Shown here piece after piece: positions 8,143-54,138 of a stretch of DNA of 54,138 nt. Within the stretch, counting starts at the first letter, position 1. Each line of letters starts with the position of its first letter. A model generated the notes under the pieces. The model was given only the letters and a program-made list of their open reading frames with translations. It was not told the origin of the DNA and made no database searches. The translations under genes and the position numbers were made by a program. The stretch comes from Cocleimonas sp. (GTDB lineage: Bacteria; Pseudomonadota; Gammaproteobacteria; Thiotrichales; Thiotrichaceae), in assembly GCA_036479895.1 (NCBI GenBank), contig JAZGFW010000302.1, positions 1-54,138 of the forward strand, given 5' to 3'.

Positions 8143-8333
8143 TGAAAAAAGAACAATTAATATTTGAGCTGCAACAGGAATTGAGAGCCAATAAACTAGA
8201 AAAGATTTTGATAGAAAAACCTACTAGTTTAAAATTTCTGGATACACTCAATTTTTGGTTAGCCCCCTTTCCAAGATCTTATGGTACATGGATACAAAAT
8301 TTATACAAATTAGAACTTAAGGTGGCAAATTAA
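8142..8333 (+). CDS. Hypothetical protein
   Basis: TAATG coupling on both sides. Confidence 0.6.
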   Translation: MKKEQLIFELQQELRANKLEKILIEKPTSLKFLDTLNFWLAPFPRSYGTWIQNLYKLELKVAN

Positions 8334-9088
8334 TGACTGAAGATTTTATTATAGAAAATGACGTCCTATATATTGATACAAGAGAAACTAGCGTATTATT
8401 TAAAATAATTCCTTTTATGAATGCTAAAGGCATATCTATAAAAACAATTCCTATTACCGAAAGTTTGGATATGAGTGGTGATTATTATTATAAATGTGAT
8501 AAAGGAGAATTACTTATTGAAAGAAAGCAAATGGCAGATCTAGACGGTTCTATTGATGACGAGAGCGTTTTTTATCAATCTCAAAAAATGGCTTTATGGC
8601 TTCAAGCTGGAAATAAAAGATATGCTTTTATTAAAACAATAGGTAATAATGATACAATGAATCATCATGCGAATATAAATTTTGCACAAAGGATCGGAGC
8701 AACGGAATCAGTAACGTCACGCACCGGTATTCCTTTACAAAATTATTCACATGAAAGGGGATTTATTTGGAGTATATACAAAAACATACGATCGCTAAGA
8801 GAAGGTAAAATGGGTCAATTCAGAACACTTGATTTATTTAAGTATGTATTTCCGGATATCGATTTAAAATTAGAAGACCAAAAAACAATTCATATTAACG
8901 TCCTTCGTTGTTATGGTGCATCGAAAAAACAAGCAATTGAAATTGTTAATGAATTTGATATTGAAAGTTATGAAAGTCTAGGTTTACTATCAAAAATTAA
9001 GGATCTTAAGGGTATTAAAGGGGTAGGTTCGAAGACTTCTGAAAAAATATTTAAAAGAATGAGAATATCAGGAAGTAATAATAAATGA
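8333..9088 (+). CDS. ERCC4/XPF-family nuclease with C-terminal HhH (probable resolvase)
   Basis: IDTRE, GDY, IERKQMADLDGSI.D catalytic motifs; GIKGVGSKTSEKI HhH. Confidence 0.88.
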   Translation: MTEDFIIENDVLYIDTRETSVLFKIIPFMNAKGISIKTIPITESLDMSGDYYYKCDKGELLIERKQMADLDGSIDDESVFYQSQKMALWLQAGNKRYAFIKTIGNNDTMNHHANINFAQRIGATESVTSRTGIPLQNYSHERGFIWSIYKNIRSLREGKMGQFRTLDLFKYVFPDIDLKLEDQKTIHINVLRCYGASKKQAIEIVNEFDIESYESLGLLSKIKDLKGIKGVGSKTSEKIFKRMRISGSNNK

Positions 9089-9483: not shown

Positions 9484-9638
9484 TAAAACATAAACCAAGT
9501 TGTATAATACCACCTGATTATAGAATTATTCCTAATCCTTATCATAATCTAAAGGATTTTATTATTGAGATAGAAGATGGATATCATTTTATAGATGACG
9601 TTAAATATTGTCCTTTTTGTGGTATTAAATTAGAATGA
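9480..9638 (+). CDS. Zinc-ribbon microprotein with probable ATA start
   Basis: Ends in VKYCPFCGIKLE; in-frame stop at 9474; ATAA overlap upstream and ATGA overlap downstream. Confidence 0.65.
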   Translation: MIKHKPSCIIPPDYRIIPNPYHNLKDFIIEIEDGYHFIDDVKYCPFCGIKLE

Positions 9639-10426
9639 TCTATCCAGATCGCAATAATATAATTCTAGACGTACGCGGTGCATTATGGTTCCTGGAGAAT
9701 TTACCAGAAGAAAGATGGGAAACTATTGATACTATTGTATTGGATCCTCCTTACTATGATTCAGACAAAAAAACCGATGTTGAAAAAGTAAACTCGAGAA
9801 CTAAATTAAAAAAACCTTCTAGAAGTAGGATTAGAGTAAAATATTTTAGCCCGCATACTCGTTTAATGAATAGTTTTATCCGAAGAAAAATAATAGGATA
9901 TATCAAATATAAAATGAATGAAGATACACGGGTTTTACATTTTCATAGTGTACGGGATAGATTACCCAAATTAGAAAATTTTTGCTGTGATCATGAGTGG
10001 ATTAAACCCATTAAAATAGTTATGACCGGAAATAATGATAGAAAGAATATAGAATATATCCGGATTGAAGGACCTAAAATAGAAGGAAACACTATGGTAG
10101 GTCGAACATTAAATCAAGCAATTGTTAATTGCGAACCAGAAATGATTATCGGAAATAAAGCCCCTACTATTGTTAGGGCTTGTGCCAAACCAGAAAAATT
10201 ATTTATTGAATTATTTAGGCATTTAGATAGTAGACATGTTCTAGATCCTTTTGCTGGATGGGGTAGATCTATAAGTGCTGCTTTGAAAATGGGCCTAAAA
10301 ATAGATGCCTGTGATTCCGATGTATTGGATCCAAGATTAAAGAAACAATATAATATCTATAAATCAATGGAATACAAAGAATATGTTCAAAAAATGCAAA
10401 CAACAATAGATTATGAATTTGAATGA
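9635..10426 (+). CDS. DNA amino-methyltransferase (beta class, probably m6A), divergent
   Basis: LDPPYY motif IV precedes KPEKL and VLDPFAGWG motif I. Confidence 0.8.
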   Translation: MIYPDRNNIILDVRGALWFLENLPEERWETIDTIVLDPPYYDSDKKTDVEKVNSRTKLKKPSRSRIRVKYFSPHTRLMNSFIRRKIIGYIKYKMNEDTRVLHFHSVRDRLPKLENFCCDHEWIKPIKIVMTGNNDRKNIEYIRIEGPKIEGNTMVGRTLNQAIVNCEPEMIIGNKAPTIVRACAKPEKLFIELFRHLDSRHVLDPFAGWGRSISAALKMGLKIDACDSDVLDPRLKKQYNIYKSMEYKEYVQKMQTTIDYEFE

Positions 10427-10692
10427 ATGCTAGTTTACTAGTGACAAAAATTAATATATAAAGGGGTCTTTAGTAGGAACTAATGTATCCAAAATTTGTC
10501 CGTAATCGAATTTTAAGAGACTTATTTACCAAGTAAGCACAAATATATTCAATAGATAATATAAGTACTAAATCAATTATAGAACAAATATTTTCAATCA
10601 TCAGACGTATTTAATGAAATAATATTATTGATAATAAATCATTAGTGCAAAAAATAACTTCATAAAAGAAGAATTAATCTTCATTATTGAAG

Positions 10693-10740
10693 AAAATAAC
10701 TGCAATGTTTATATATCTCCACGACGTATATATAATTATG
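10693..10740 (+). promoter_or_regulatory. Conserved leaderless promoter, copy 2
   Basis: aaaataac...TTTATATA...tatatataattATG; TATA 30 nt before ATG. Confidence 0.65.
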
Positions 10741-10905
10741 GCAATTCAAACCACTAACTTCTTCTCTGGAAACAAAACATTCGATACTAAACCCGAAGCT
10801 CAAAAATACTATGATAAAATGAATGTAGATTACAAAAATATTCATTTCTTCCCCCTTCAAGGCGGAGGTTATATTATCAGCTTTTTAAATGCAAAATTAA
10901 GATAG
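10738..10905 (+). CDS. 55-aa early orphan protein
   Basis: MAIQTTNFFSGNKTFDTKPEAQKYY; leaderless start, corrected from 10687. Confidence 0.7.
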   Translation: MAIQTTNFFSGNKTFDTKPEAQKYYDKMNVDYKNIHFFPLQGGGYIISFLNAKLR

Positions 10906-10929
10906 TTAAAGGATAAGGAATTGAATTAA

Positions 10930-11160
10930 ATGGGAAAACTAAATAAAATCAAAATAATCAAAATGTTTTTGGAACATGATATAATTAGTTTGGATCTAGT
11001 TATGGAGCTACATTCATCAAGCAAAAATGCTACCAGAATGATATTAGCTGATATGACCAAGAGAGGGATCCTAATTAAATTACACGGATATACTTATCTA
11101 CTTAATACTAAACCATTAATAAAAATGGCTGTGCAATTTTACGAAGAATTCAATTTATAA
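10930..11160 (+). CDS. Winged-helix protein
   Basis: SKNATRMILADMTKRGILIKLHGYTYLL. Confidence 0.65.
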   Translation: MGKLNKIKIIKMFLEHDIISLDLVMELHSSSKNATRMILADMTKRGILIKLHGYTYLLNTKPLIKMAVQFYEEFNL

Positions 11161-11227
11161 TGTATTACAAAAATGTATTACATATTCGATAAATTTATAA
11201 TAATAACAATAAAAATGTATTTTACCG

Positions 11228-11401
11228 ATGGATAAAATAAAAAAAAGCCAACTTATATCCTTTAGAATAAATGAGGAAGAACAAAAGAATTTGGATATTA
11301 TTTTAGAAAGTAAAAAATTTAAAAATCGGTCTAATGCAATTAAAGAATCTATAAAATTAATGAGTAAATCAATATCGCAAGAATTAGCTGGAGAGACATA
11401 A
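11228..11401 (+). CDS. CopG/RHH transcriptional regulator (not in ORF track)
   Basis: SQLISFRINEEEQKNLDIIL...FKNRSNAIKESI, a canonical RHH pattern. Confidence 0.8.
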   Translation: MDKIKKSQLISFRINEEEQKNLDIILESKKFKNRSNAIKESIKLMSKSISQELAGET

Positions 11402-13134
11402 AGGGGGCGTTTTATATTAAGTCTGGATTAGAAATACCACGTGTTAAAGAAAGCCCATTTCGTACCAAAAGAACAGAAATAATAGATGAATTGTTTACTA
11501 TCCAAGAAAAATTACCACACTATCTATACACACTATCCACAAAGGAACGGCACATGATTCATTATAGTGAAATTGAGGGAATTTATAAAAGAGATATAGA
11601 CGATTCTTTTATTGAAAAAGTAATAGGCGATATTATGTTACAGAAAGCGGATTGGTATAACACGGAAAGCAACAAATCGGAAATTGTAACCGGTAGAAAT
11701 GGATTATTATCTTGGTTCCATTTGAGAAGGGTGGGGGAAATAACCAAGATAATTAATGAATATAAGTTAGAACTTAATGTCTGTGGGTTAAATAGTGACA
11801 TTGAAGAATTTAGTCGTTTCAGTAAGTTTGACCCGGAAGAACAAACGGTTCTTTTTAACATGAAAAATACAGCAATTAAATTTAATTTAATAACTAAAAA
11901 AATGGAAGATATAGGTTATTCAAAAGACAACATGTTTCTATCTAAATTACAAGTAGATTATGATCCTGATTTCGATAATTCGCTTTGGCTAAAATCAATC
12001 AGGCAAATTATACCAAATGAAAAACAACGGAAGATATTACAAAGATGGGTAGCCTATTCATTAATTAATAAATATTTCAAATGGCAAGTATCAATATTAT
12101 TGTATGGTCCAAGGGCCAATAACGGAAAAAATACTGTAATGAATTCAATTGGTTCATTATTTAGTTTTCCAAAAACGACAACGTTAGAAAGAATATCTAA
12201 TAAATTTGGCCTTTATCAATTAAGAAATTCAGATTTTATTATTGCGGATGAATCTGATGCTTATTTTAATAATACATCTAATTTCAAAAATCTAATAACT
12301 GGGGAAAAAATGACAATAGAAGGTAAGGGGCTTAGTGAACAAGAAGCATTAATTGATGCTAAATTAATTATTGCAGCTAATAAATTATCCCCGGCTATTG
12401 TTAGTGATAAAGGAACTATGCGTAGAATAATTGTATTACTAACCCCTGAATCTTTTGCAAATTCCGATGTTAGAGACCCTTATTTAGAAGAAAAATTAAT
12501 AAGCCAGAATACAGGCATATTCAATTGGGCACTCGAGGAATTACCTAATTTAATAAATAATGTAAAATCATATCAAGAAGGGGTTGCCGAACGTACTAAG
12601 AAAATATTTGAAGATAATCAAAATATATTTGCCAATTTTATGGTTTCTTATTGTTTAGAAAACGGCGATTGTAAATTAGATGAGCTTAGTTATTGGTATG
12701 ATCAGTATTGTGACAAATACCAAGGTGTATCCCTTAATAGAGTAAAAATAGGCATGTTAATAAAAGAAATGTATTCACCTGATAGAGTATCAAAAAGTGG
12801 AGTAAAATCTGATATGGATCATACTAAGTCCACTACTTTATATACGGGTATATCATTAAATAAACATAAATTATTGAATGAATTTCCTAATTATGTAGAA
12901 ATAAAAAATCAATTAGATTTCTTTGGTGATGACGAAGAAAATCATATTAAATTATTAAGATGGGTAATAGAAGAATTGGAAGTTCAGAAAGAAGGTATAA
13001 TATATACCAGTATATACGATCAAGGAAAGAAATTCGGAATGAGGAAAGAAGAATGTAAGGAATGGCTCAATAAATGGGTAAGTGACGGATTATTAATAAA
13101 AAATGCTGGAGTGGTTAAAATTGGAAAAATATAA
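11398..13134 (+). CDS. D5/P4-like superfamily 3 helicase with C-terminal winged helices; no primase domain recognised
   Basis: LYGPRANNGKNT Walker A, IADE Walker B, IIAAN, RRI; the frame is open upstream of 11491 back to ATA at 11398. Confidence 0.88.
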   Translation: MKGAFYIKSGLEIPRVKESPFRTKRTEIIDELFTIQEKLPHYLYTLSTKERHMIHYSEIEGIYKRDIDDSFIEKVIGDIMLQKADWYNTESNKSEIVTGRNGLLSWFHLRRVGEITKIINEYKLELNVCGLNSDIEEFSRFSKFDPEEQTVLFNMKNTAIKFNLITKKMEDIGYSKDNMFLSKLQVDYDPDFDNSLWLKSIRQIIPNEKQRKILQRWVAYSLINKYFKWQVSILLYGPRANNGKNTVMNSIGSLFSFPKTTTLERISNKFGLYQLRNSDFIIADESDAYFNNTSNFKNLITGEKMTIEGKGLSEQEALIDAKLIIAANKLSPAIVSDKGTMRRIIVLLTPESFANSDVRDPYLEEKLISQNTGIFNWALEELPNLINNVKSYQEGVAERTKKIFEDNQNIFANFMVSYCLENGDCKLDELSYWYDQYCDKYQGVSLNRVKIGMLIKEMYSPDRVSKSGVKSDMDHTKSTTLYTGISLNKHKLLNEFPNYVEIKNQLDFFGDDEENHIKLLRWVIEELEVQKEGIIYTSIYDQGKKFGMRKEECKEWLNKWVSDGLLIKNAGVVKIGKI

Positions 13135-13366
13135 AATAAAAAAAATTGAAACAAGCATAAGATATTATAAAATTCTTTTAGATAAACAAAAGAATATATT
13201 AGAAATAGGTTTTACTAATGAGAAGGAACTCGATCAATTCTATTTCCTTTGTCATTCTTGTAAAGATGGGTTAAGATCAAATCAAGGGCATGATAATATA
13301 ATTATCCAGGCAATAGGGCATATGGCTTCTGAAAACCATATGATATTATTAAGTAAGGGGGATTGA
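13103..13366 (+). CDS. Hypothetical protein (C2H2-like CHSC...H...H)
   Basis: Operon context; exact start uncertain. Confidence 0.55.
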   Translation: MLEWLKLEKYKIKKIETSIRYYKILLDKQKNILEIGFTNEKELDQFYFLCHSCKDGLRSNQGHDNIIIQAIGHMASENHMILLSKGD

Positions 13367-13368
13367 TT

Positions 13369-14184
13369 ATGAACAAATATCATTCACCAAAAATCTATAA
13401 TAAATCAAGTGAACAAATGACTGAAATAGAAAACGATACAGTTCATCTTGTTATTACTTCCCCCCCTTATAACGCAGGAATAGATTACGAAGGATATAAT
13501 GATACACAAGTATGGAGTGCATATATCAAAATGATTTCTCAAGTATTTAGCGAATGTTTTAGAGTTTTAGTTCCAGGAGGACGTATCGCAATTAATTGTG
13601 CTAATTTGGGTCGTAATCCTTATTTTCCTCTTAGATCATTACTTGAGGCATGTTTGCTTAAATCTGATTTTGATCTTATGGGTGAAATAATTTGGGAAAA
13701 AACATGGGGTACTGATTCTCATGCTTGGGGTTCATATAAGAAACCAACACGCCCGGCTATTCGCGATGTTCATGAATATATATTACTTGCTAGTAAAGGT
13801 AGAAATCCAATAACAAATGATTGTGAAGGAGAAATTACATTAGAAAAAAATGAATTTGCGAAATCTACTTTATCTATTTGGAAATTAAATCCAAGCAAAG
13901 ATAGAAATGGAAAACATCCAGCACCTTTTCCTGAAGCAATTCCAAGAAGATTAATTCGATTATTTACATTTACAAATCAGATAGTTTTAGATCCTTTTGC
14001 AGGTAGTGGAACTACATTAAAAGTGGCAGGAGAATCAAAAAGACGTTCTATTGGATATGAAATAAGTAAATCGTATTATGATAAATTTCTTATGCGATTA
14101 TTAAAATCAGGTATTCAATCGAATTTATCAGATTATTATATTAATTTATTTGAAAATACAAAGGAGCCTGTTTATAACAAATGA
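13369..14184 (+). CDS. N4-cytosine/N6-adenine DNA methyltransferase (beta class)
   Basis: VITSPPYN, HPAPFP, VLDPFAGSGTT, IGYEI. Confidence 0.93.
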   Translation: MNKYHSPKIYNKSSEQMTEIENDTVHLVITSPPYNAGIDYEGYNDTQVWSAYIKMISQVFSECFRVLVPGGRIAINCANLGRNPYFPLRSLLEACLLKSDFDLMGEIIWEKTWGTDSHAWGSYKKPTRPAIRDVHEYILLASKGRNPITNDCEGEITLEKNEFAKSTLSIWKLNPSKDRNGKHPAPFPEAIPRRLIRLFTFTNQIVLDPFAGSGTTLKVAGESKRRSIGYEISKSYYDKFLMRLLKSGIQSNLSDYYINLFENTKEPVYNK

Positions 14185-14846
14185 AATCAAAACAGTTAAT
14201 AATAGATTTGTGTTGTGGTGGTGGGGTTTTAGCGGAAGCATTTTATGATTCAGTTGGATTGGATAATAATAGAAAAGCATTAGAATATTATCCTAATATG
14301 AAAGTATTAGGTGATGCAACAAAAACGCCTTTTAGAAACAAGGCGAGTAGTTTTGTTCATAGTTCTCCTCCTTGTCAAAAATTTAGTTCTGCTAGTCATG
14401 GTAATCAAGATAAACATATTAATATTATTGATAATGTTAGAGAAGAACAGTTAAGAATAACATCGGAGCATTACTGTATAGAAAATGTTCCTGGAGCACC
14501 AATTAGAGAAGATTTAATCTTGTGTGCCGCTAATTTTGAATTACCTACAATTAGACATAGAAAATTTGAATTATCGTTTTATGTACCACAAATGAAATGT
14601 AAAACTCATAAACCTATGATTAGGCCAAAATCAGTTTATGCTAAAGATAGAGGTTGGAGAACAAAATATTATTTTGCTAATCGTAAAGGAAACAGTAAAA
14701 GAAATCAATTAATGTTAGGTTGTCGTGATCTCCCTGGTGAAATATCAGGTGAAGGCGTTCCATCAGCATATATGCGATATATATTAGAATATCTAGATAA
14801 AGATATTAAACAACCAAAATTAGAGGAATATTTTGAAAATGAATGA
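14181..14846 (+). CDS. Compact C5-cytosine DNA methyltransferase
   Basis: IDLCCGGG, SPPCQKFS, IENVPGA, RHRKF. Confidence 0.85.
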   Translation: MKSKQLIIDLCCGGGVLAEAFYDSVGLDNNRKALEYYPNMKVLGDATKTPFRNKASSFVHSSPPCQKFSSASHGNQDKHINIIDNVREEQLRITSEHYCIENVPGAPIREDLILCAANFELPTIRHRKFELSFYVPQMKCKTHKPMIRPKSVYAKDRGWRTKYYFANRKGNSKRNQLMLGCRDLPGEISGEGVPSAYMRYILEYLDKDIKQPKLEEYFENE

Positions 14847-15129
14847 AAATAATAATTATGACTTGGCTGTTTTACAGTCAATAATAGATGAAAAGAAAGA
14901 TTTCTTAATAAGAAAGCAAAATGAACTAAAATTAATTTCTATGGAAATTACACAAGTAAGTAGACAAATAGACGAATTAGACGCCGTTCATAAAAAATTG
15001 GATAATTTTAACAAAATATCTAATCTTCCCGTTTGTCGTATTTGCAATGCGACATTTTATCATGATTTTGAAAAATCAGATAATGTATGTTTAAAATGCG
15101 AACCTAAAGAAGTGACATCCCATGACTAA
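14839..15129 (+). CDS. Coiled-coil/zinc-finger protein
   Basis: CRIC...VCLKC; GAGG SD. Confidence 0.65.
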   Translation: MNENNNYDLAVLQSIIDEKKDFLIRKQNELKLISMEITQVSRQIDELDAVHKKLDNFNKISNLPVCRICNATFYHDFEKSDNVCLKCEPKEVTSHD

Positions 15130-15898
15130 GATAGAATGGACCCAAACAATCGATAAAAAAGGTAATAAAACAAAAGGAAAATCCTGGAACCCAATTACGG
15201 GTTGTACTCAAATTTCAAAAGGCTGTCGATCCTGTTATGCTAAGGTAATGCATAAGAGACTTAAAGGAATGGGTAAAAAGAAATATCAATTTGATTTTAA
15301 AAAAGTAATATTCCATGAAAGTGAATTAACTATCCCCGCAACCTGGAAGAAACCAAGAAAGATATTTGTTTGTAGTATGTCAGACCTATTTCACGAAAAA
15401 GTAGAAGATCGGCAAATAAGGGCCATTCTAGGAATAATAGAAGTTAATCCTCAACATACTTTCCAATTACTTACCAAAAGAGCAGAAAGATTGCCAAACT
15501 TCGTGTATCCATCTAATGTATGGCTAGGTGTAACGATCGAGCATAATGATTATGTTAAGCGTGCCGATTATTTAAGAAAAACGAATGCTAAAGTCAAGTT
15601 TATATCGGCAGAACCACTTCTAGGATATCTTATTGATATTATATTAACAGATATAAATTGGGTAATCGTTGGTGGGGAATCTGGACCAAAAACAAAGGTC
15701 AGAAGAATGCACTATCCTTGGGTTAGACACCTTAAAGATAAAATAGATCGGTATGATAATATTAGGTTCTTCTATAAGCAAGGTGGTTCACATAATCAAT
15801 GTCATTCTTTTGTAAAGGAATATCACAAAGACGATCCAGGGTGTAATTCTAAAGGATGTAAAATATTGGATGGCCGTGTATGGGAGGAATTGCCATAA
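15122..15898 (+). CDS. Phage Gp37/Gp68 (DUF5131) radical-SAM-like protein
   Basis: TKIEWT, WNPITGCTQISKGCRSCYA (CX6CX2C), FVCSMSDLFH, LLTKR, SAEPLL, WVIVGGESG, FFYKQ. Confidence 0.92.
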   Translation: MTKIEWTQTIDKKGNKTKGKSWNPITGCTQISKGCRSCYAKVMHKRLKGMGKKKYQFDFKKVIFHESELTIPATWKKPRKIFVCSMSDLFHEKVEDRQIRAILGIIEVNPQHTFQLLTKRAERLPNFVYPSNVWLGVTIEHNDYVKRADYLRKTNAKVKFISAEPLLGYLIDIILTDINWVIVGGESGPKTKVRRMHYPWVRHLKDKIDRYDNIRFFYKQGGSHNQCHSFVKEYHKDDPGCNSKGCKILDGRVWEELP

Positions 15899-19127: not shown

Positions 19128-19478
19128 ATGGATGTAGACGAAAAAATAAGGCGTCAAATAAACGCCAAGGTAAGAGAATTATATCTTATTTCAGGTGGGG
19201 TTTCCTTAATTAACTATACAATCACGATATCTGAAGAATATGAAGCCAACGAAAAAAAATTATATCAAAAAATGTCATTTAATTTGGAGATATCCGCTTC
19301 TGGAACCAGCGAAGATAAAACTAACGTGGTTATCCGTTTTGGAGGAGATAAAATAATAATCGCTTTTGTAGAAAAATGGTATATTAAATTATCAGAACTA
19401 ATGTTTAAACTATACAAACTGGATAAGAAAATGGGGGCTAAAATATATCTAGATAAATTTGTGGAGGTAGGCGAATGA
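19128..19478 (+). CDS. Hypothetical protein
   Basis: Directly coupled in the operon. Confidence 0.65.
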   Translation: MDVDEKIRRQINAKVRELYLISGGVSLINYTITISEEYEANEKKLYQKMSFNLEISASGTSEDKTNVVIRFGGDKIIIAFVEKWYIKLSELMFKLYKLDKKMGAKIYLDKFVEVGE

Positions 19479-20503
19479 CTGAAAAAGATTTAGTAGAAGA
19501 AATCCTGGGAAAAGACAATAATGAATTAGACCCAAATTCAATGTTGATTTGGTGGGAGCTTACTAACAAGGTTAATGTAGCCCAACCTAAGACCCGTATT
19601 ATTCGATTGACAATCAATGAGGCTAGATCCGGGGAAGATTTTCTTTCTGAAAAAGTAAACGAAAAAATTATGGGTAAAATAAAGAAGTTAGTTGATGACG
19701 GTTCATTTAAATATCCTCTATTTATTAGAACAGACCTTTCTAGTATTAAACATGATTTTATTAATACTTGTTATATTGAAAAAGAAGAAAATTTGGAAAG
19801 AAACCTCGATAATTTAATAATGGAAAATAGATGTCTTGGATTTATGGGTGTCCCTTTCTTAGCTATTGTAATTAGGGAATATATACCCCTTGATTCTCGA
19901 TTTAAAGCCTTTTTTGGTCATATGCCTGTTGCCCCGGAAATCAGATTTTTTTATAAAGATGGAAAATTTGAATGTTATCATAATTATTGGCCTAAAGATT
20001 CAATACAAGATAATCCAACAAACGATCCAGATGAATGGGAAAAGAAATGGGAAGAAATGGATACTGAAATACATCAAATAGCTGACGAAGTAATGAAAGA
20101 TGCTGATAAAATAGCAGCCGTTTTAGATGGTTATTGGTCCATTGATTTTGCAAAGGCAAAAGACGGAAGATGGCTGTTTATAGATTCGGCACAAGGGGAT
20201 GCTTCATATCATGGTCCACATCCACTAAAATATACCGGACCGTTAGATATTAAAGAAAAGAAAATTTATACGCAAGAGGAAATGGATAATGCAATTAGAA
20301 ATATAAAATTTTCAGAAATGAAATTCGATTTATCAGAAGATATAGAATTTAAAATAACATATGAACACCAAGAGCATTTCGTAAAATTTATGCAAAAAGT
20401 TCTATCCGTTAAAAAATATCAGAAATTAGCTGATAAATTAGGTCTTGTTTTTGAATTCATGGAAGAGGACGAAGAAAAGATCTCCGGCAACATTCAATCC
20501 TAG
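19475..20503 (+). CDS. ATP-grasp enzyme (R2K-like)
   Basis: YPLFIRTDLSSIKH, IVIREYI, PEIRFF, WSIDFA..DGRWLFID. Confidence 0.78.
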   Translation: MTEKDLVEEILGKDNNELDPNSMLIWWELTNKVNVAQPKTRIIRLTINEARSGEDFLSEKVNEKIMGKIKKLVDDGSFKYPLFIRTDLSSIKHDFINTCYIEKEENLERNLDNLIMENRCLGFMGVPFLAIVIREYIPLDSRFKAFFGHMPVAPEIRFFYKDGKFECYHNYWPKDSIQDNPTNDPDEWEKKWEEMDTEIHQIADEVMKDADKIAAVLDGYWSIDFAKAKDGRWLFIDSAQGDASYHGPHPLKYTGPLDIKEKKIYTQEEMDNAIRNIKFSEMKFDLSEDIEFKITYEHQEHFVKFMQKVLSVKKYQKLADKLGLVFEFMEEDEEKISGNIQS

Positions 20504-24324: not shown

Positions 24325-24503
24325 TATGGTTCGGTCCTCATTTGTAACAATATATGATTATTATTGCAATTATTATTTTTGCAATCAGCTCGAGTAACAT
24401 TTCCATCCTTATCGGCAATTAAGATCCAATCTTCCTTGCCACAAACATCACACATTACAACGAAATCTTTTTCTTTTTCGTCTAATTTGGATAAATTAAT
24501 CAT
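24324..24503 (-). CDS. Zinc-ribbon microprotein (not in ORF track)
   Basis: MINLSK...CDVCG...CKNNNC; TAATG coupling. Confidence 0.6.
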   Translation of the reverse strand: MINLSKLDEKEKDFVVMCDVCGKEDWILIADKDGNVTRADCKNNNCNNNHILLQMRTEP

Positions 24504-25030
24504 TATGGTTTCGCCTCCACTTTAATTACAGCCTTTTCTTTGATAATATCCTTCGGTTTATCTTTGGTTTCTACGGTCGTAGTAACATTTTCCTCTTTCA
24601 TAGCATCTAAAATTTCTTCCTTGGTAACATTTGTCTCTTCTTTAGTTTCGGATTCTTCTTCCTCAATAAGACCCAAACTTTGAATTTGTTCTTTATTCAA
24701 ATTCTCATGTGGATAAACTTCTAATATGACATCAATTAATATTTCTAGTTTGTCTTCAATATTTACAATACGACCATTCAATTCATTTTTATATATTTCA
24801 TTTTCTTGATAAAATTGATTAGATGTCCTATCAAGGGCTGATATTTTCTCTTTTGCACCCGCAATATCATCACTAAGGGCATTTCGAACATCCGTTATTC
24901 TATTAAATACAATAGCGTCATTTTGCGTTAATTGCTGGACGAGTTTATTGTCTTTATTTTTAGCCTTTTCAGCTATTTGTTTATTTTGTCTTATGAATTT
25001 TCTATCTTTGTTTTTACTTTTTTTTGTCAT
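24503..25030 (-). CDS. Coiled-coil hypothetical protein
   Basis: GGAG SD; late operon. Confidence 0.7.
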   Translation of the reverse strand: MTKKSKNKDRKFIRQNKQIAEKAKNKDNKLVQQLTQNDAIVFNRITDVRNALSDDIAGAKEKISALDRTSNQFYQENEIYKNELNGRIVNIEDKLEILIDVILEVYPHENLNKEQIQSLGLIEEEESETKEETNVTKEEILDAMKEENVTTTVETKDKPKDIIKEKAVIKVEAKP

Positions 25031-35266: not shown

Positions 35267-36544
35267 TTATTTATAATCTCGGAGCTGAAAATTTGCTCTT
35301 GGATTATGACTTTCTAATTCAAGAATAGATAATAGTGCTTCTTTATTCTTGAAAGCATCTAAATCAATATAATCATTAGATGCAAATAGAGTCGTTGGAA
35401 GAAGATCTTTTAAGAATGTTCCAACAGTAGCAGATAGATAAATTCCGTAGATTCGCTCAAGGGTATCAGTTGTAACAGTTGTGTCCTCAATGATAGGATA
35501 ATCACGATATGAAGCAAGAGCATAACCACCTTCTTCTTTACCCACGGTATACATTCCGTTAAATCCGCCGGCCCATTTGGATACTTGCCTTTCAGATCCA
35601 ACAAATCTTTGTTTGGACCCGGCTTCTTGATTCATTCTTTCTAGCATATTAGGACCAGTAATTAAAACAAATTGGCCTCCAGTCATATCTCCTTGTCTAT
35701 ATCTTCTTGTAGCAGCTAAAGCGGTGTCAATATCATCAAATGAGAAATCACGATCAACATCAGAATTATGATCAACATACGGATCTAGATCTGTAGATGC
35801 TGATTTATCAATACCAAAAATATCTTCGTCACCATCATCATAACTAACAGCAACCCTTAAAGCAGTTGTAGCAGTTAATCGATCTAATGATTCAACGTTT
35901 ACTCCAGCTAATGTATTAAAATCCTGGGTAAGATAAGAATCTATATCACGCATATGTTCAGATTTGACTAATGGTCTTTGAGATTCAATACCAGGGATAT
36001 TGTCATCGCCTGTTCTGGAAAGCAATTGAGCTTTTAAAGTTTCTTCATAAGTATGAACAATTTCCTTAGGTACATTATTATATTTTTCTGGTGTTTGATA
36101 ATCGGTATCCGGTAAAACAGCACCTTCGGTCTGACCTCCACCGGTTGCATGCCTATCTACTGCATAATTCCAACCAGACATAGCCCAAGGAGCATGTGGG
36201 AAAACAGTTAATATATTAGCACTTAAATCTTGTGTTTGCCAAAGCCTAGAACCATAAACAATATTAACAAATCCAGCTTCTGTTGATGTTATAGGATCGT
36301 CGGCTTTAGATAGCCAAGTTAAATAATTAGAATCAGTATGTGGATAATAAGTGGCTAGTAAATCTTTTGTGGTTCTAAATTTAAAACTAGTTTTTTTCTG
36401 AAATAGTGGATTTCTTCCATCAAAAGTACGGCCTAAAACCTCCGCTTCATATTGCATACGCTTATCAATCATTGTATCGACATAATTGACTACTTGTGCG
36501 GCTTGGGCTTCGTTTAATTGTCCCCTGCTAGATTGTCTACTCAT
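35267..36544 (-). CDS. Major capsid protein (HK97 fold)
   Basis: NIVYGSRLW...PHAPWAMSGW, EGAVLPDT, PKEIVH, ESLDR resemble halovirus/magrovirus-type MCPs (from recall); follows the protease gene. Confidence 0.9.
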   Translation of the reverse strand: MSRQSSRGQLNEAQAAQVVNYVDTMIDKRMQYEAEVLGRTFDGRNPLFQKKTSFKFRTTKDLLATYYPHTDSNYLTWLSKADDPITSTEAGFVNIVYGSRLWQTQDLSANILTVFPHAPWAMSGWNYAVDRHATGGGQTEGAVLPDTDYQTPEKYNNVPKEIVHTYEETLKAQLLSRTGDDNIPGIESQRPLVKSEHMRDIDSYLTQDFNTLAGVNVESLDRLTATTALRVAVSYDDGDEDIFGIDKSASTDLDPYVDHNSDVDRDFSFDDIDTALAATRRYRQGDMTGGQFVLITGPNMLERMNQEAGSKQRFVGSERQVSKWAGGFNGMYTVGKEEGGYALASYRDYPIIEDTTVTTDTLERIYGIYLSATVGTFLKDLLPTTLFASNDYIDLDAFKNKEALLSILELESHNPRANFQLRDYK

Positions 36545-38980: not shown

Positions 38981-39796
38981 CTATTGTATTGGCTCTACTG
39001 TTATATCCATTGCACATCCAACAGAAGTATTATTAGAACTTACATTATTAGCCCTCAATTTAAATAGAGTTAATGGAGAGAGTTTTCTAGGAGGTCTATA
39101 AACAATAGGAACCGATGAACTACCTAATGAAACTACGCTAATAGTTGCTTTTACTTGCCAAACTTCCCCCATTGGTTTAGATAATAATGTAATTTCAGCA
39201 TCATTTGCTAAACCTTGTGTTCTTAAAATATGAGGTTGCAAGGAATGAATGAATGCTTCTTTACCGGATTCGACCGCAAAAACTGCCATTAAAGTTTCAT
39301 TATTACCAGGTAAAATTACTGCCATGGTAATTCCTGAATCAACGGAACCTGTGGCAATTATAATTCCAGCATTTTCTCCACCGGACCCACCTGTCCTGAT
39401 TATTGCCCTGAATAGACATTTATATGATTTGCTTGAAACTATTGGTGTAGTTCCATTTAGATTTAAAATCTCTGATTCTTTGATATCATTATTATCTATT
39501 CCTTCTATTTCTATTGTTCTTGCACCGGCCCCCCCAATATTATCAGTAGAATTATCAGATACAATAGAAACAGTTTGAGCACCGGACGGAAACCAATCCC
39601 ATGTAAAACCATTATCTGTTATATCTTTTGTTTGTCCAGTATCTATATCCGGATTCCCACCAAATTTATTAACTGGATATGCACCTTCAATTATATTTTT
39701 GGCAATGGCTTCCTTATGATCTAGTCGTACAAATTCTCCTTCTTTACTTGTTTTAATAGGAACCCAATTATTATCTTTATCTTTTCCCCATCCCAT
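38981..39796 (-). CDS. Putative virion protein, tandem paralogue B
   Basis: VNKFG.NPD, VSIVS, GARTIEIEGID, LNGTTP, GNNETLMAVF. Confidence 0.75.
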   Translation of the reverse strand: MGWGKDKDNNWVPIKTSKEGEFVRLDHKEAIAKNIIEGAYPVNKFGGNPDIDTGQTKDITDNGFTWDWFPSGAQTVSIVSDNSTDNIGGAGARTIEIEGIDNNDIKESEILNLNGTTPIVSSKSYKCLFRAIIRTGGSGGENAGIIIATGSVDSGITMAVILPGNNETLMAVFAVESGKEAFIHSLQPHILRTQGLANDAEITLLSKPMGEVWQVKATISVVSLGSSSVPIVYRPPRKLSPLTLFKLRANNVSSNNTSVGCAMDITVEPIQ

Positions 39797-39797
39797 A

Positions 39798-40613
39798 TTA
39801 CTGCACCGGTTCCACTGTTATATCCATACTCCCACCTATTAATAAATTGGTAGTACTAACATTACTTACATTTAATTTAAATAAAGTTAGAGGATCAAAT
39901 TGTTTTGGAGGATCAAAAAGAACCACTGGAGCTGAATCGCCCGTTGTTTCCATACTAAAACGCTCTTTTACCTGCCATACCTCGCCGTTAGGCTTTGCTA
40001 ATAAGGTAATTTCCGCAGAAACAGCAACGCCCGCTGTTCTTAAAGTTCTTAATTTTATTCCATGGATAAAACCCTCCTTACTTGTTTCGATTGCAAAGAC
40101 GCACATCAAGGTTTGATTATTTCCTATTAATATTACGAACATAGTTGTTCCTGAATCAGTTGAACCTGTGCATGTAATATTCCCAATATTGGCTCCAACA
40201 GAACCAGCTGTTCTTATTATAGCTCTAAATAATAATTTGTAGGTTTTAGTCGATACAACGGGTGTAGTGCCATTTAAATTAATGGTTTCCGATACCTTCG
40301 CGTCATTTTCGTCTATTCCTTCGATAAATATTGTTAAAGCCCCGGTATCAGTTCCTGCTCCTCCATCTTCATCGTCACTTGATACAATGGAAACAGTCTG
40401 TGCGCCAGAAGGGAATAAATCCCACGTGAATCCGGTATCGGTCATATCCTCCGCTGCATCTACATCAGGATTTTCACCGAACTTATTAACAGAATAAGCT
40501 CCTGCAATTATACTTTTAGCGACCGCAGTTTTATGATCCATCCTTACAGGTTCTCCCTCTTTACTACCCACTGATTCTACCCAGTTACCATCTTTATCTC
40601 TGTGCCAAGTCAT
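39798..40613 (-). CDS. Putative virion protein, tandem paralogue A
   Basis: Same length (271 aa) and colinear with paralogue B; both end in MDITVEP(I/V)Q. Confidence 0.75.
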   Translation of the reverse strand: MTWHRDKDGNWVESVGSKEGEPVRMDHKTAVAKSIIAGAYSVNKFGENPDVDAAEDMTDTGFTWDLFPSGAQTVSIVSSDDEDGGAGTDTGALTIFIEGIDENDAKVSETINLNGTTPVVSTKTYKLLFRAIIRTAGSVGANIGNITCTGSTDSGTTMFVILIGNNQTLMCVFAIETSKEGFIHGIKLRTLRTAGVAVSAEITLLAKPNGEVWQVKERFSMETTGDSAPVVLFDPPKQFDPLTLFKLNVSNVSTTNLLIGGSMDITVEPVQ

Positions 40614-40646: not shown

Positions 40647-41414
40647 TTAAACGATTCTTCTTGGGGCAGATCTACAATTCCAATGCGGATTCAATTCCCT
40701 CTGATCGAATTTAGGAAAATGTTTTGCACCTACAAAGTCTACTATTTGAATTAGACGCGATAATGGAACTCCTGGTTTATTATAATATTGCATACCTTCA
40801 GCCTCAACAGTAGCTTTTATTTCTTTACAGCAATCTGTTGTCCTATGATCTCTACCAATACTCCATCCAAACAAATATGTTCCTCGAGGATCTCGTTGAT
40901 TCCATTCTATCATTCGGCCTTGATTTATCACGTATTGTGAATCTGTTCTATTTACAGTTTCATATTTTCTTAATTCAGAAATTGCAATGCTTTTTAATAT
41001 TTCTTCTAATTCAACCGCCGGGTCTATTAAAGCAGACATTAATTCAGGGATTTGAGTTAATCGACTAGCTAATCTTCCAGCTAAATTTACAATTCCCTCT
41101 TCTATTTTTGTATTTTTCATTACTTGATTAAATGCAATATCTATTAATTCTTTAGGGTAATATTCACGCCTACTACCTTCAATAAAGCCTAGTCTTAATA
41201 TATTTCTAAGATGACTTTCGACACGTCCGTATAACTCTGTATATAATGATTGAGTTATTTCACTTATACTAGCATTAAGATCTAAATTGCTTTTAATATC
41301 AGTAATTACAGGCATTATTTCTTTACGCCAATAATCCACAACCGAATTTAATAATTTTTTTTCTAATTTTTCTTGACGTTTATCAGTTAATCTTAGAGGA
41401 CCTGAAAACATCAT
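40647..41414 (-). CDS. MuF/SPP1 gp7-like head morphogenesis protein
   Basis: TVNRTD, DHRTTDCC, PHWNCRS; follows the portal gene. Confidence 0.82.
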   Translation of the reverse strand: MMFSGPLRLTDKRQEKLEKKLLNSVVDYWRKEIMPVITDIKSNLDLNASISEITQSLYTELYGRVESHLRNILRLGFIEGSRREYYPKELIDIAFNQVMKNTKIEEGIVNLAGRLASRLTQIPELMSALIDPAVELEEILKSIAISELRKYETVNRTDSQYVINQGRMIEWNQRDPRGTYLFGWSIGRDHRTTDCCKEIKATVEAEGMQYYNKPGVPLSRLIQIVDFVGAKHFPKFDQRELNPHWNCRSAPRRIV

Positions 41415-43720
41415 TTTTCTATTTTTCCACCACGTCGTATTGTTTCCTTTTCGATGTCGTTTAGTTGATTAATAATATCTTCTGGGATAAACTTCCCTCC
41501 TTTATAAAATTCACCAAGAATATTTAATCCACCTTTAGGTGCTCTTAATTGTTGTTTTGCTTGCATTTTTTTACTAATATTTGCTCCCTCTTTAGCACGT
41601 ACAACGGCGACTCTAACGGTTTCCTGTTCTTTTTTATCAAGTACGTATTTTCTATGATTACCGTCTAATAGATTAAGATTTGAATCTACTATAAGTGGCT
41701 GCATTTCATTTTTTTCTGTTAGATAATAAATAATTGTTCCTGCTCTTACTCTGGGAGATCCGTTCTTTATATCTTCTTCTTTAATTTCATAATCTGGGTG
41801 GGATTGTATTTCCCCTCTTTCTACCGTACGAAATTCAGTAAGTTCATAATCGTCTTCCCATTCCCATTCTGGCATTTCATCAACAAAAGTATAATAATTA
41901 TTTTTTAATATAGGGGAATCTATAATTTCGTATCCTTCCGCTTTATTATCGCCTTCAGCCATTTTTTTTACATTAGGATATCCAGGTGCACCTTGGTATT
42001 TATCGGCCGCTGCCTGTTGATCTTTATCTATATCTAATTGTTTAACATCTTTTGTTGGATAAATTGATTGATAATTGGCTGGATCATCAGTGAATAAATC
42101 TGCATAAGGATCCTCTATTTTTTCACGTTCAATAACTTGTAATTCATTATTAGAATCCAATGTGCGATCAAACCTTAGTTGGTTTACCATAATTGCAACA
42201 TACAACGCTTTCTTAGTTTTTAATTCTACTTCTGCAACTTCATCCTGTTCTTCGCTAGGAGCTAATTCTATGACCCAATCATTCAAACCTATTAATTTTG
42301 ATAATGGACCTAAAATATTTAAATTCCAGGCATTTTGACCCGTTGCAATTGCTCGGTTAGTAACCGTAAATTGTAAACCTTCATTATTTAAGCCCCCACC
42401 TTGACTTACATCACCTCTAAATATTCTAGATACACCAAAAAATGCACCCATAGAATCTTTTGATTCGTCCCTTACCGCGATAAATTCCATTTCCACCGGT
42501 GAAGTATCAAATTTAACAAATTCTGGTTTTGCTCCTCCGGGTGATGGTTCATAAGGAAGTATACCTATGGCATTAGCATCTTTATCTAATATTCTACGCA
42601 TTTTTTTTGCTTCTTCCCATACGTCTTCCCAAGAGCTAGCAGTAGGTAGTAATAAATATCCTGGTAATTTATGATAATGAGTATCGTCATAATAATCAGA
42701 CATATGTTTTAATTGATTAGTTGTCAATGATAATTCATATCTAAGAGTTACGGCCGGTGGATATCCATATAAAGCTGAAGGACTATGTAATGACGAATGA
42801 AGAATTTCATTTTGAATATATTTAGTAATAACTGTATTTGTACCTGGTTCATAGCCATAAGCAATAACAGGATAGAGAAAATTATTACAATTATCAATAT
42901 CGCATAAACCATCCGCATACCTCGAGGAATATTTTCTATGATCAACACAAGTATATTCATAAGTGCCTATTCTATTAGTTTTTGGCTCAACGGACCAAGC
43001 AATATTAGCTGGGTGTACCACCCATAATTGTTTAACTTCTGCAAAAACAATTAATCCGTTTTTAAGGATATAATCATTTTCAACTAATACCCACATATCA
43101 TCAACCATATCGACGTATCGTTGATTTTCTTTTATGATATCGATTAAATGTTGGTTATTAGTATTAACAGTATAAGAGGCGTCGATCCATTCTTCTCCAA
43201 TTTCTTTTTCTGATTCACTAGGAAATATAAATGGATATATATCTTCGGTATTTCCGCAATTATCACAACTTTCTGTTATCTGGTCATAATCAACGTTACA
43301 TACAGGACATTTACAAGAAAATTTAGAAGTAATTTGTAAACCGTTTCGTGTTATTTCTTGCGTTCTCGCTTGTAATAATTGTCTTGCCGTAGAATTATAC
43401 ATCATTGACATGACCATTTGATCATAGGCTTCAGACGGGAATGAGACTATTTCCCCTGATTCTCCATAATAGTTCTGACGTGAAGATAAGACGTTAATAT
43501 ATGATTTTGATTTTTCTAATTGTATAGCGTTAGATTTTGCTTGAAATAAATTCTGTAATTGATTTGTAATACTTGATTTTGATTTTAATTCTTCTATTTG
43601 AGTGCTTAATATATCAATATTAGTTTGATATGAATCCAAAGTCCTACCCATGAAAAAACGAGCTAATCTACTTGTTTTGATATTAGTTTTTGTTTTGCTT
43701 TCTGATACAGTTGATGACAT
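41411..43720 (-). CDS. Portal protein with zinc-finger insertions and C-terminal ParB/Srx-like extension
   Basis: After TerL; LYGYPP, MEFIAVRD, FFGVS, GGLNNEGLQ; C-terminal PLIVDSNLNLLDGNHRK. Confidence 0.85.
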   Translation of the reverse strand: MSSTVSESKTKTNIKTSRLARFFMGRTLDSYQTNIDILSTQIEELKSKSSITNQLQNLFQAKSNAIQLEKSKSYINVLSSRQNYYGESGEIVSFPSEAYDQMVMSMMYNSTARQLLQARTQEITRNGLQITSKFSCKCPVCNVDYDQITESCDNCGNTEDIYPFIFPSESEKEIGEEWIDASYTVNTNNQHLIDIIKENQRYVDMVDDMWVLVENDYILKNGLIVFAEVKQLWVVHPANIAWSVEPKTNRIGTYEYTCVDHRKYSSRYADGLCDIDNCNNFLYPVIAYGYEPGTNTVITKYIQNEILHSSLHSPSALYGYPPAVTLRYELSLTTNQLKHMSDYYDDTHYHKLPGYLLLPTASSWEDVWEEAKKMRRILDKDANAIGILPYEPSPGGAKPEFVKFDTSPVEMEFIAVRDESKDSMGAFFGVSRIFRGDVSQGGGLNNEGLQFTVTNRAIATGQNAWNLNILGPLSKLIGLNDWVIELAPSEEQDEVAEVELKTKKALYVAIMVNQLRFDRTLDSNNELQVIEREKIEDPYADLFTDDPANYQSIYPTKDVKQLDIDKDQQAAADKYQGAPGYPNVKKMAEGDNKAEGYEIIDSPILKNNYYTFVDEMPEWEWEDDYELTEFRTVERGEIQSHPDYEIKEEDIKNGSPRVRAGTIIYYLTEKNEMQPLIVDSNLNLLDGNHRKYVLDKKEQETVRVAVVRAKEGANISKKMQAKQQLRAPKGGLNILGEFYKGGKFIPEDIINQLNDIEKETIRRGGKIEK

Positions 43721-46003: not shown

Positions 46004-46948
46004 TTGAATATTATTTTTGATATACCTAAAGAAAATAATAACCCTAAAACCCATAAATTCTGTTATGATTGTGGTTCCTATAAATTCATTAAAACCATTT
46101 CTAATATTGTTTGTACGGTTTGCGGATTATGCACTAGTGAAAAATTATATTCAACCTTACAACCATTCAAAGAAGTAGCAGATTATTCACAACCAATTTT
46201 AACAAACAACAAAAAAGCTAATGAAGTAACGGACCGATTATTATACTGGATCCAACTGGAGATATCAATCGAGAAAAAAATTACATTGATTGTTGATATT
46301 AATACTTTAGCTAATGAATTTCATATTTTATCATTAAATTATCCTTCTGAATATTATCTTGCAGCAGCAATTATTTTTTCTAAACAATTTATATTTTTAT
46401 CGCGTGAAATGGTAATAGGATACTTATTCAATGATTTTAACAAGGCATGTGGAAAAATGCTAAAAAAAATAGATAAATTAACGCGTGATAAGTACGATAC
46501 CTTCGGAAATGACTTGAATACTGGATTAATATACTTAAAAGATAAATCAAATAATAAAAATGATAATCATTACAATGAATACTTAAGTAAATATTGGGAA
46601 AAGAAAATAATTCAAGTAAATAATATTGTTAATGGTAAGAAAATGACACAAACAAACGTATTAAAAAAATCTAGACTATCTCAAAATAGTTACTATCGAA
46701 ATAAAAAGAGATTAAATGGATATAACCAATATAAACAACTTGGAAGACCCTCAATAATTGATAGTTGTCCTGAGGCCATTAATATTATATTACAATTATA
46801 TAAAGAAGGAAAAACCCTTATCCAGATTAAAGAATATCTAATAGATAATTTATTGAATTTTGTTGAATTAAAAATATATTATAAAATCATCAGTTTATCA
46901 ATACAAGCTATAAGGAATTATATATTAAAGAATCGAAACAATATTTAA
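46004..46948 (+). CDS. TFB/TFIIB-like protein (zinc ribbon, helical core, extra C-terminal HTH)
   Basis: CYDCGS.......IVCTVCGL is the TFIIB ribbon pattern; YLAAAIIF is cyclin-box-like. Confidence 0.62.
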   Translation: MNIIFDIPKENNNPKTHKFCYDCGSYKFIKTISNIVCTVCGLCTSEKLYSTLQPFKEVADYSQPILTNNKKANEVTDRLLYWIQLEISIEKKITLIVDINTLANEFHILSLNYPSEYYLAAAIIFSKQFIFLSREMVIGYLFNDFNKACGKMLKKIDKLTRDKYDTFGNDLNTGLIYLKDKSNNKNDNHYNEYLSKYWEKKIIQVNNIVNGKKMTQTNVLKKSRLSQNSYYRNKKRLNGYNQYKQLGRPSIIDSCPEAINIILQLYKEGKTLIQIKEYLIDNLLNFVELKIYYKIISLSIQAIRNYILKNRNNI

Positions 46949-54011: not shown

Positions 54012-54138
54012 CAATTGGGAAATGAAGAGGAAGCAATAGCAGCATCTAAAGAAATTTTAGAAACAGCTTGTAAAAAATGCGGATGCGGTCCTGGTTTACA
54101 TCCTGATAATGGTAAATGTGAATTTTGTACTGGTCATC
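54012..54138 (+). repeat. Terminal direct repeat copy 2
   Basis: Exact 127-bp copy of positions 1-127; it falls inside a gene. Confidence 0.97.

Follow-up and report, generated by a model that had tools for sequence, protein, structure and literature searches.

Why would a virus equip its DNA methyltransferases (MTases) with peptides of the kind that bind PCNA? The question is raised by a contig of 54,138 nucleotides (JAZGFW010000302.1, assembly GCA_036479895.1, Cocleimonas sp.), which was analyzed as a whole and is referred to here as the window. Three MTases encoded in the window, designated A, B and C, end in peptides that resemble the PCNA-interacting peptide (PIP) box. On balance, we consider it probable that these tails bind the PCNA of the host and thereby speed the methylation of new viral DNA against restriction. 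The genes and their tails are as follows.

9635..10426, + strand: MTase A, a divergent beta-class amino-MTase (N6-adenine/N4-cytosine, N6A/N4C) of 263 aa, assigned by fold, Atlas features and motifs
10397..10420, + strand: imperfect PIP-like tail of A, QTTIDYEF, starting 9 residues from the C-terminus (by translation)
13363..14184, + strand: MTase B, a beta-class N4C/N6A enzyme of 273 aa (PF01555, E 2.2e-46)
14116..14139, + strand: strict PIP box of B, QSNLSDYY, starting 22 residues from the C-terminus (by translation)
14181..14846, + strand: MTase C, a minimal C5-cytosine-type enzyme of 221 aa (phrog_363, E 9e-13)
14811..14834, + strand: strict PIP box of C, QPKLEEYF, starting 11 residues from the C-terminus (by translation)

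An earlier note on this DNA had proposed three DNA MTases of two different classes, and the present assignments agree with it. A and B are placed in the beta class by fold and by PF01555, respectively, and in both the catalytic (D/S)PPY motif precedes the S-adenosylmethionine-binding FxGxG, as is the rule in this class (DPPY at 9743-9754 and DPFAGWG at 10244-10264 in A; SPPY at 13459-13470 and DPFAGSG at 13990-14010 in B). By hidden Markov model A is a weak match (Pfam); its AlphaFold model (pTM 0.79) matches CcrM with E 1.5e-8 in Foldseek, where all ten best matches are beta-class DNA MTases, its Atlas features point to PF01555 with a score of 0.96, and residues D37, P39 and Y40 of its DPPY motif are invariant across 30 aligned sequences. 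C is of the C5 type by phrog_363 and by motifs that occur in the order DLCCGGG, PPCQ (14367-14378), IENV (14478-14489), RHR and GEGVP, which we take to be C5 motif I, the catalytic PC, ENV, RxR and motif X. Neither Pfam nor the PDB sequences gave a match to C itself, PF00145 is present on 6 of its 13 homologues, and 283 phage records were matched. All three enzymes are single-domain proteins of 221-273 aa with no large regulatory domains or partner subunits, and no restriction endonuclease was recognized among the scanned neighbours with Pfam, PHROG and NCBIfam profiles, by which such endonucleases are often missed. A, B and C appear to be orphan restriction-modification-type MTases, their catalysis being predicted.

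QSNLSDYY and QPKLEEYF match the consensus Qxx[LIM]xx[FY][FY] exactly and at the positions that the earlier note had given; QTTIDYEF, which it had called imperfect, departs from the consensus by an E at position 7 and aligns to the T-L-E-x-x-F tail of its family after a short insertion. The box of B runs on into an aromatic helix (INLF). Under the same strict pattern, which is that of the earlier note, a box lies within the last 40 residues of 3 of the 101 non-overlapping open reading frames (ORFs) of at least 50 aa, compared with 0.16 expected from shuffles, the carriers being B, C and a 57-aa ORF that runs antisense to the genes around it.

The tails were then compared across homologues. In the B family, Q250 and L253 are invariant in 13 aligned close sequences, and a QxxLxx[FYW] tail is present in 11 of the 12 closest homologues, compared with 2 of the 107 next homologues (12 of which carry an organism name, 11 of those bacterial) and 2 of 82 homologues from IMG/VR, both at the shuffled level. 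The IMG/VR set consists of 82 beta-class ORFs from 80 loci (L004-L083), taken regardless of host. A quick tree of 76 rows, built with every second distant homologue, unites the close set and the enzyme of a related locus, L091, in one branch (SH-aLRT 98); therefore the B tail has one origin, not eleven. For family A, a profile search gave 111 matches; 41 full-length sequences among the 52 with E <=3e-7 were kept, and 11 partial and 59 weak matches were dropped. Of these 41 sequences, 28 have the pattern [LIM]xx[FYW] within their last 12 residues (shuffled mean 7.6, maximum 16 in 1000 shuffles), and in the control sets it is found in 4/82 (IMG/VR) and 13/107 (distant) sequences. Typical family-A ends are QSKINDYF, QPSLEDYI, KTITSWF and EQKLEDFFD; in many members hardly anything separates the box from the final core strand, and the length of the linker ahead of it varies. 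In family C, an L-x-x-[WF]-F end is carried by 3/3 close and 0/10 distant relatives. One C relative, P0002, has PYQ in place of PCQ and still keeps its tail.

Tails of a similar kind were also found in other viruses. L091, a 15.5-kb part of a 55-kb IMG/VR contig reached through MTase C, encodes four modification enzymes, all of which carry the core pattern: the Dam-type MTase ends in SSLERF, the PAPS-reductase/DndC-like protein in ATLEDFF, the beta MTase in FIQDWF and the C5 MTase in KNLDDFF. Of its remaining 25 ORFs, one matched. The PAPS-reductase/DndC-like protein stands alone immediately before two MTases (7928-9208 of L091) and may serve a kind of clamp-tethered DNA modification that is not methylation. 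The C5 homologue of this locus (9980-10444) has lost about 60 residues from its interior, the RxR motif among them, and retains its LDDFF tail. In the cultured virus HCTV-5, both MTases and the RFC large subunit end in VLDF and PolB ends in VLSW; a V-L-[DES]-[FW] end is common to PolB, the RFC large subunit, both MTases and gp68 (L092 15320-20846, 27315-28430 and 38752-39660), and gp68 adjoins queuosine-pathway genes. HCTV-2 gp18 ends in QASLGGY. The 10 MTase-annotated genes that were examined from named archaeal viruses comprise one with a QxxLxx-aromatic end, two with VLDF, one weak, one beta-like and five with none. Judged by sequence, PIP-box-type MTase tails are recurrent in archaeal viruses. 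Searches for closer relatives gave little: MTase C alone as an IMG/VR query returned no close relatives with flanks, alignment A1 returned no IMG/VR matches and three weak bacterial matches among GTDB genomes, and both metagenome scans for close relatives with flanks returned nothing.

The support for PCNA binding includes a PIP register conserved in three unrelated families, on tails that extend beyond the catalytic cores. Comparison across unrelated enzyme families leaves the PIP reading well supported, and binding of the tails to PCNA is, in our judgement, likely. The tails could instead be structural, each an amphipathic terminal helix on the Rossmann core or on a beta-class dimer that merely looks like a PIP box. 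As such a role would have it, a helix with additional conserved aromatics is predicted for the tail of B (253-263), and the A model places the tail at the end of a helix, both models being of monomers only. The B model has a mean pLDDT of 86 and a core mostly above 90 up to residue 240, followed by a linker and the separate tail helix at pLDDT 64-73; in the A model, pLDDT falls below 50 at 259-263. Neither monomer model shows firm burial of the tail. The position of the tails past the catalytic domain, which the earlier note had asserted, is seen both in the alignments, where they are conserved, and in the A and B models, at lower confidence. Against a structural role stand the identical register on unrelated folds (beta-class, C5, Dam-type and PAPS-reductase-like), the variable linker in family A and the absence of the tail from most distant homologues, which together make it rather improbable.

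A second register was counted alongside, using tail patterns that we take to be those of beta-clamp binders. Such ends are present in 25 of the 107 distant homologues (shuffled 3.8) and 16 of the 82 IMG/VR homologues (shuffled 4.3), and in 0/12 close relatives of B and 1/41 family-A members. For the comparison of archaeal with phage homologues called for in the earlier note, this means that the PIP register is not equally frequent in the two, while tails of the clamp type in general are no peculiarity of archaeal viruses; the idea is less unique than had been proposed. Since beta-clamp-type peptides are common at the ends of the distant and IMG/VR homologues, the tagging of MTases for a clamp seems to be widespread among prokaryotic mobile elements.

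Which clamp is available depends on the host. The window is the entire contig of a 2.29-Mb, 78% complete metagenome-assembled genome (MAG) that carries a bacterial beta clamp, and no PCNA match was found in the window or in the rest of the MAG. Since its first 100 bases are found again at 54012, in a 127-base assembly overlap, the window closes into a circle, and with terminase, portal, capsid, neck, tail tube and tape measure proteins (Pfam, PHROGs) it is a complete circular tailed virus. Two virion genes are informative about its affinity.

35267..36544, - strand: major capsid protein; 9/9 matching records, of 50,697 phage records, are archaeal viruses
41411..43720, - strand: portal protein; 10/10 matching records, of the same 50,697, are archaeal viruses

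The capsid matches in that collection comprise Druskaviridae and a Methanofastidiosa virus, and nothing else. The nearest named sequences (27-31% identity for the capsid, 22-25% for the portal) belong to Druskaviridae (HVTV-1, HCTV-1, HCTV-5) and to the methanogen viruses vir519 and vir335. The GC content of the contig (0.314) is the lowest of the 309 contigs in the MAG, and its tetranucleotide profile is the most distant of the 91 contigs of at least 8 kb. The window is probably an archaeal-type tailed virus and a binning contaminant of the bacterial MAG; on composition, capsid and portal, the bacterial bin was rejected as the host. By the last two genes the host is very likely an archaeon having PCNA. 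The archaeal nature of the virus, assumed by the earlier note, accordingly stands for the virion genes, whose matches are exclusively archaeal, and it is these genes, not the bin, that point to an archaeal host, since the contig sits in a bacterial MAG. One family-A member, P0172, comes from a Heimdallarchaeota MAG, the sole organism name among 30 homologues looked up (20 of family A), and is a weak lead on the host.

The same evidence bears on the identity of the binding partner. The tails could instead fit a PIP-like pocket on some other partner, such as a protease adaptor, a viral protein or another host hub, or they could serve the beta clamp of a bacterial host, as might be argued from the bin, from a beta-clamp-like QLDFF inside the viral helicase and from the overlap of PIP boxes with other motifs (PMC6881253). 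The composition of the contig, the archaeal-only matches of capsid and portal, the beta register in 0/12 and 1/41 relatives and the Heimdallarchaeota origin of the one named family-A member among the 20 looked up all point the other way, and we regard such a partner as very unlikely.

How, then, would PCNA binding serve this virus? One replication enzyme was recognized in the window.

11491..13134, + strand: superfamily 3 (SF3) / P4-D5-type helicase-primase (PF19263; PHROG primase families; TIGR01613 below cut-off)

After the helicase gene and an 87-aa ORF come B and C, in one tightly packed run with overlapping stops and starts, the start of C overlapping the end of B by ATGA. The QLDFF of the helicase lies in a linker (12910-12924), 74 residues from the end, and is odd for an archaeal virus; as a candidate PIP box it is off the PIP register and was left uncounted. 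Neither a DNA polymerase nor a clamp turned up in the ORFs scanned (40 by Pfam and 26 by PHROGs, including all ORFs >300 aa), in line with the earlier description of the virus as polymerase-less. Two ORFs >400 aa have no family match, and both are within the virion module.

A virus so equipped would borrow the host replisome. Its MTases would load via their terminal PIP boxes onto host PCNA left on nascent DNA, the higher local concentration would allow each new duplex to be methylated sooner, and earlier methylation would shield the viral DNA from host restriction enzymes. This account of clamp-tethered methylation is plausible. Its central step, the concentration of the MTases at or just behind forks by PCNA binding, we hold to be slightly favoured, and faster protection from restriction, as opposed to a regulatory use, is a possible pay-off that falls a little short of an even chance. 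By analogy with Dnmt1, the benefit would probably be one of efficiency and not all-or-none.

The composition of the viral genome is relevant to the proposed pay-off. Several sites are strongly avoided in the window (GCGC, 2 vs 29.5 expected; CTSAG, 2 vs 19; AAGCTT, 0 vs 7; CCGCC, 5 vs 25), L091 has 0 GCGC vs 13 expected, and general CG depletion was not detected in the window (rho 0.91). GTGC/GCAC occurs 145 times in the window vs 124 expected (z 1.9). Such avoidance fits a host with restriction enzymes, and the GCGC deficit is also compatible with deamination of methylated GCGC; the avoided sites may be a fingerprint of the host restriction systems or of the C5 target. An attempt to deduce the targets of the viral MTases from composition failed.

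Binding to PCNA might also serve other ends, such as aiding DNA loading or processivity, regulating viral transcription, replication or packaging, or competing with host clamp clients. In their favour, the tail is kept by the L091 C5 homologue that has lost RxR and by the relative with PYQ for PCQ, and Dnmt1 gains just 2-fold from PCNA binding and does not strictly depend on it (PMC1934996). Nevertheless, the tails sit selectively on enzymes that modify DNA, in several families; the avoidance seen in the genome resembles that of restriction sites, and the B and C genes come after the helicase gene. PCNA binding for a purpose other than protection from restriction at the fork appears unlikely.

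Tethering of enzymes to PCNA has precedents. QxxLxxF is the published archaeal PIP consensus (PMC7776575), and the archaeal PCNA clients PolB, PolD, RFC large subunit, Fen1 and RNase H2 share this register and its C-terminal position with the tails described here (PMC7776575, PMC6881253); in contrast to these clients, the carriers here are viral DNA MTases and their PCNA binding is predicted. Mammalian Dnmt1 and the Tetrahymena AMT6 complex are alike in function: a PIP box recruits the MTase to freshly copied DNA, where methylation is accelerated (PMC1934996, PMC11761967), and in AMT6 it starts the maintenance of N6-methyladenine (6mA) after replication (PMC11761967). However, these are eukaryotic maintenance systems with boxes internal in disordered regions or loops, whereas the viral A, B and C are small, stand-alone, restriction-modification-type enzymes with terminal boxes, for which reason the arrangement would be convergent. 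Of the parallel with eukaryotic maintenance methylation drawn in the earlier note, a functional likeness alone would remain; A, B and C are orphan, single-domain enzymes of the restriction-modification type. Among archaeal viruses, SIRV2 likewise uses a protein that binds a host clamp, PCNA3 (Gardner et al. 2014, as cited in PMC5537682, where Gp1 is named), but Gp1 is not an MTase and the virus is of another class with a crenarchaeal host.

Known orphan MTases (STSV1/2, HCTV-5, HVTV-1 and the mycobacteriophage C5 enzymes) belong to the same families and have no recognized cognate restriction enzyme, but clamp tails are not annotated in the records consulted; the tails of HCTV-5 went unremarked, and STSV2 and YNP1 have none. 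Druskaviridae differ from the window in their genomes of ~100 kb, with PolB and RFC in HCTV-5; the window has 54 kb and 31% GC, and neither gene was found in it. Viral PCNA and MTases figure in two Asgard-virus papers, the available parts of which make no claim about PIP tails (10.1101/2021.07.29.453957, PMC11529989). In the literature searched, with most subscription journals outside its scope, no prokaryotic or viral DNA MTase is described as clamp-binding.

Several observations weigh against clamp-tethered methylation. The 11 of 12 tails in the B family represent a single clade and count once. The glutamine is present in only 6/41 family-A members and in 0/3 close relatives of C; in favour of the PIP reading, however, 34% of validated PIP motifs lack it too and archaeal PIP boxes are C-terminal, although matches to the PIP consensus can be false positives (PMC6881253). 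The tail of B extends into a conserved F/Y-W/Y-x-x-Y/L-F helix that could pack on the enzyme or a dimer. Tails are missing from the MTases of STSV2 (two), YNP1 and HCTV-2 (two), that of HRTV-DL is weak and that of SMV3 is beta-like. In the window itself, the helicase, the Cas4-like nuclease and the ERCC4 nuclease all end without a PIP box. The contig was binned with a bacterium. Finally, the core patterns were written after the tails had been seen.

The remaining features of the window include a small gene ahead of the helicase and, by family scan, four genes of the early region.

11228..11401, + strand: 57-aa ORF, ribbon-helix-helix-like by eye, no family match
1754-2509, early region: Cas4-like nuclease
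8333-9088, early region: ERCC4-like nuclease
15122-15898, early region: DUF5131 protein
19475-20503, early region: R2K-clade ATP-grasp protein

The ribbon-helix-helix-like fold of the 57-aa ORF is suggested by its sequence, and three copies of AATGTATT (variant AATGTATT(ACA)) at ~11159-11221, just upstream of this ORF and the helicase, form a possible operator; other than these short copies, no origin-like repeat array was found upstream of the helicase. No tRNAs were found in the window. A 314-aa ORF at 46004-46948, opposite in direction to its neighbours, has an N-terminal zinc ribbon; its candidacy as a TFIIB-like protein reaches Atlas scores of only 0.82 or less and remains a lead. The virion module contains a tandem pair of 271-aa paralogues (38981-39796 and 39798-40613), the first of which is phrog_8198. 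A low-complexity charged protein at 24503-25030 has a weak Peptidase_M27 match in Pfam (16 bits, cut-off 27), taken as noise.

Clamp-tethered modification may be a general strategy of prokaryotic viruses that was unreported before, a view we put forward tentatively. Beta-class, C5, Dam-type and PAPS-reductase/DndC-like enzymes would have acquired, time and again, a terminal peptide that suits whichever clamp is present, namely a PIP box in archaeal hosts, QxxLF/QxxLxF in bacterial ones and, where the virus brings its own replisome, a private one, and viral DNA would be marked while being made. The register of the tail might then hint at the host domain of uncultured viruses, and the cultured halovirus HCTV-5 offers a case that is testable in vivo. 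Eukaryotes are known to couple methylation to replication via PCNA (Dnmt1, AMT6). If their tails do bind, archaeal viruses would have arrived at this coupling independently and in several enzyme families, and that would readily explain how slow orphan MTases match the viral replication burst. Should the host prove to be an Asgard archaeon, the lineage nearest to eukaryotes would hold a convergent prokaryotic equivalent of the way in which Dnmt1 and AMT6 are coupled to PCNA.

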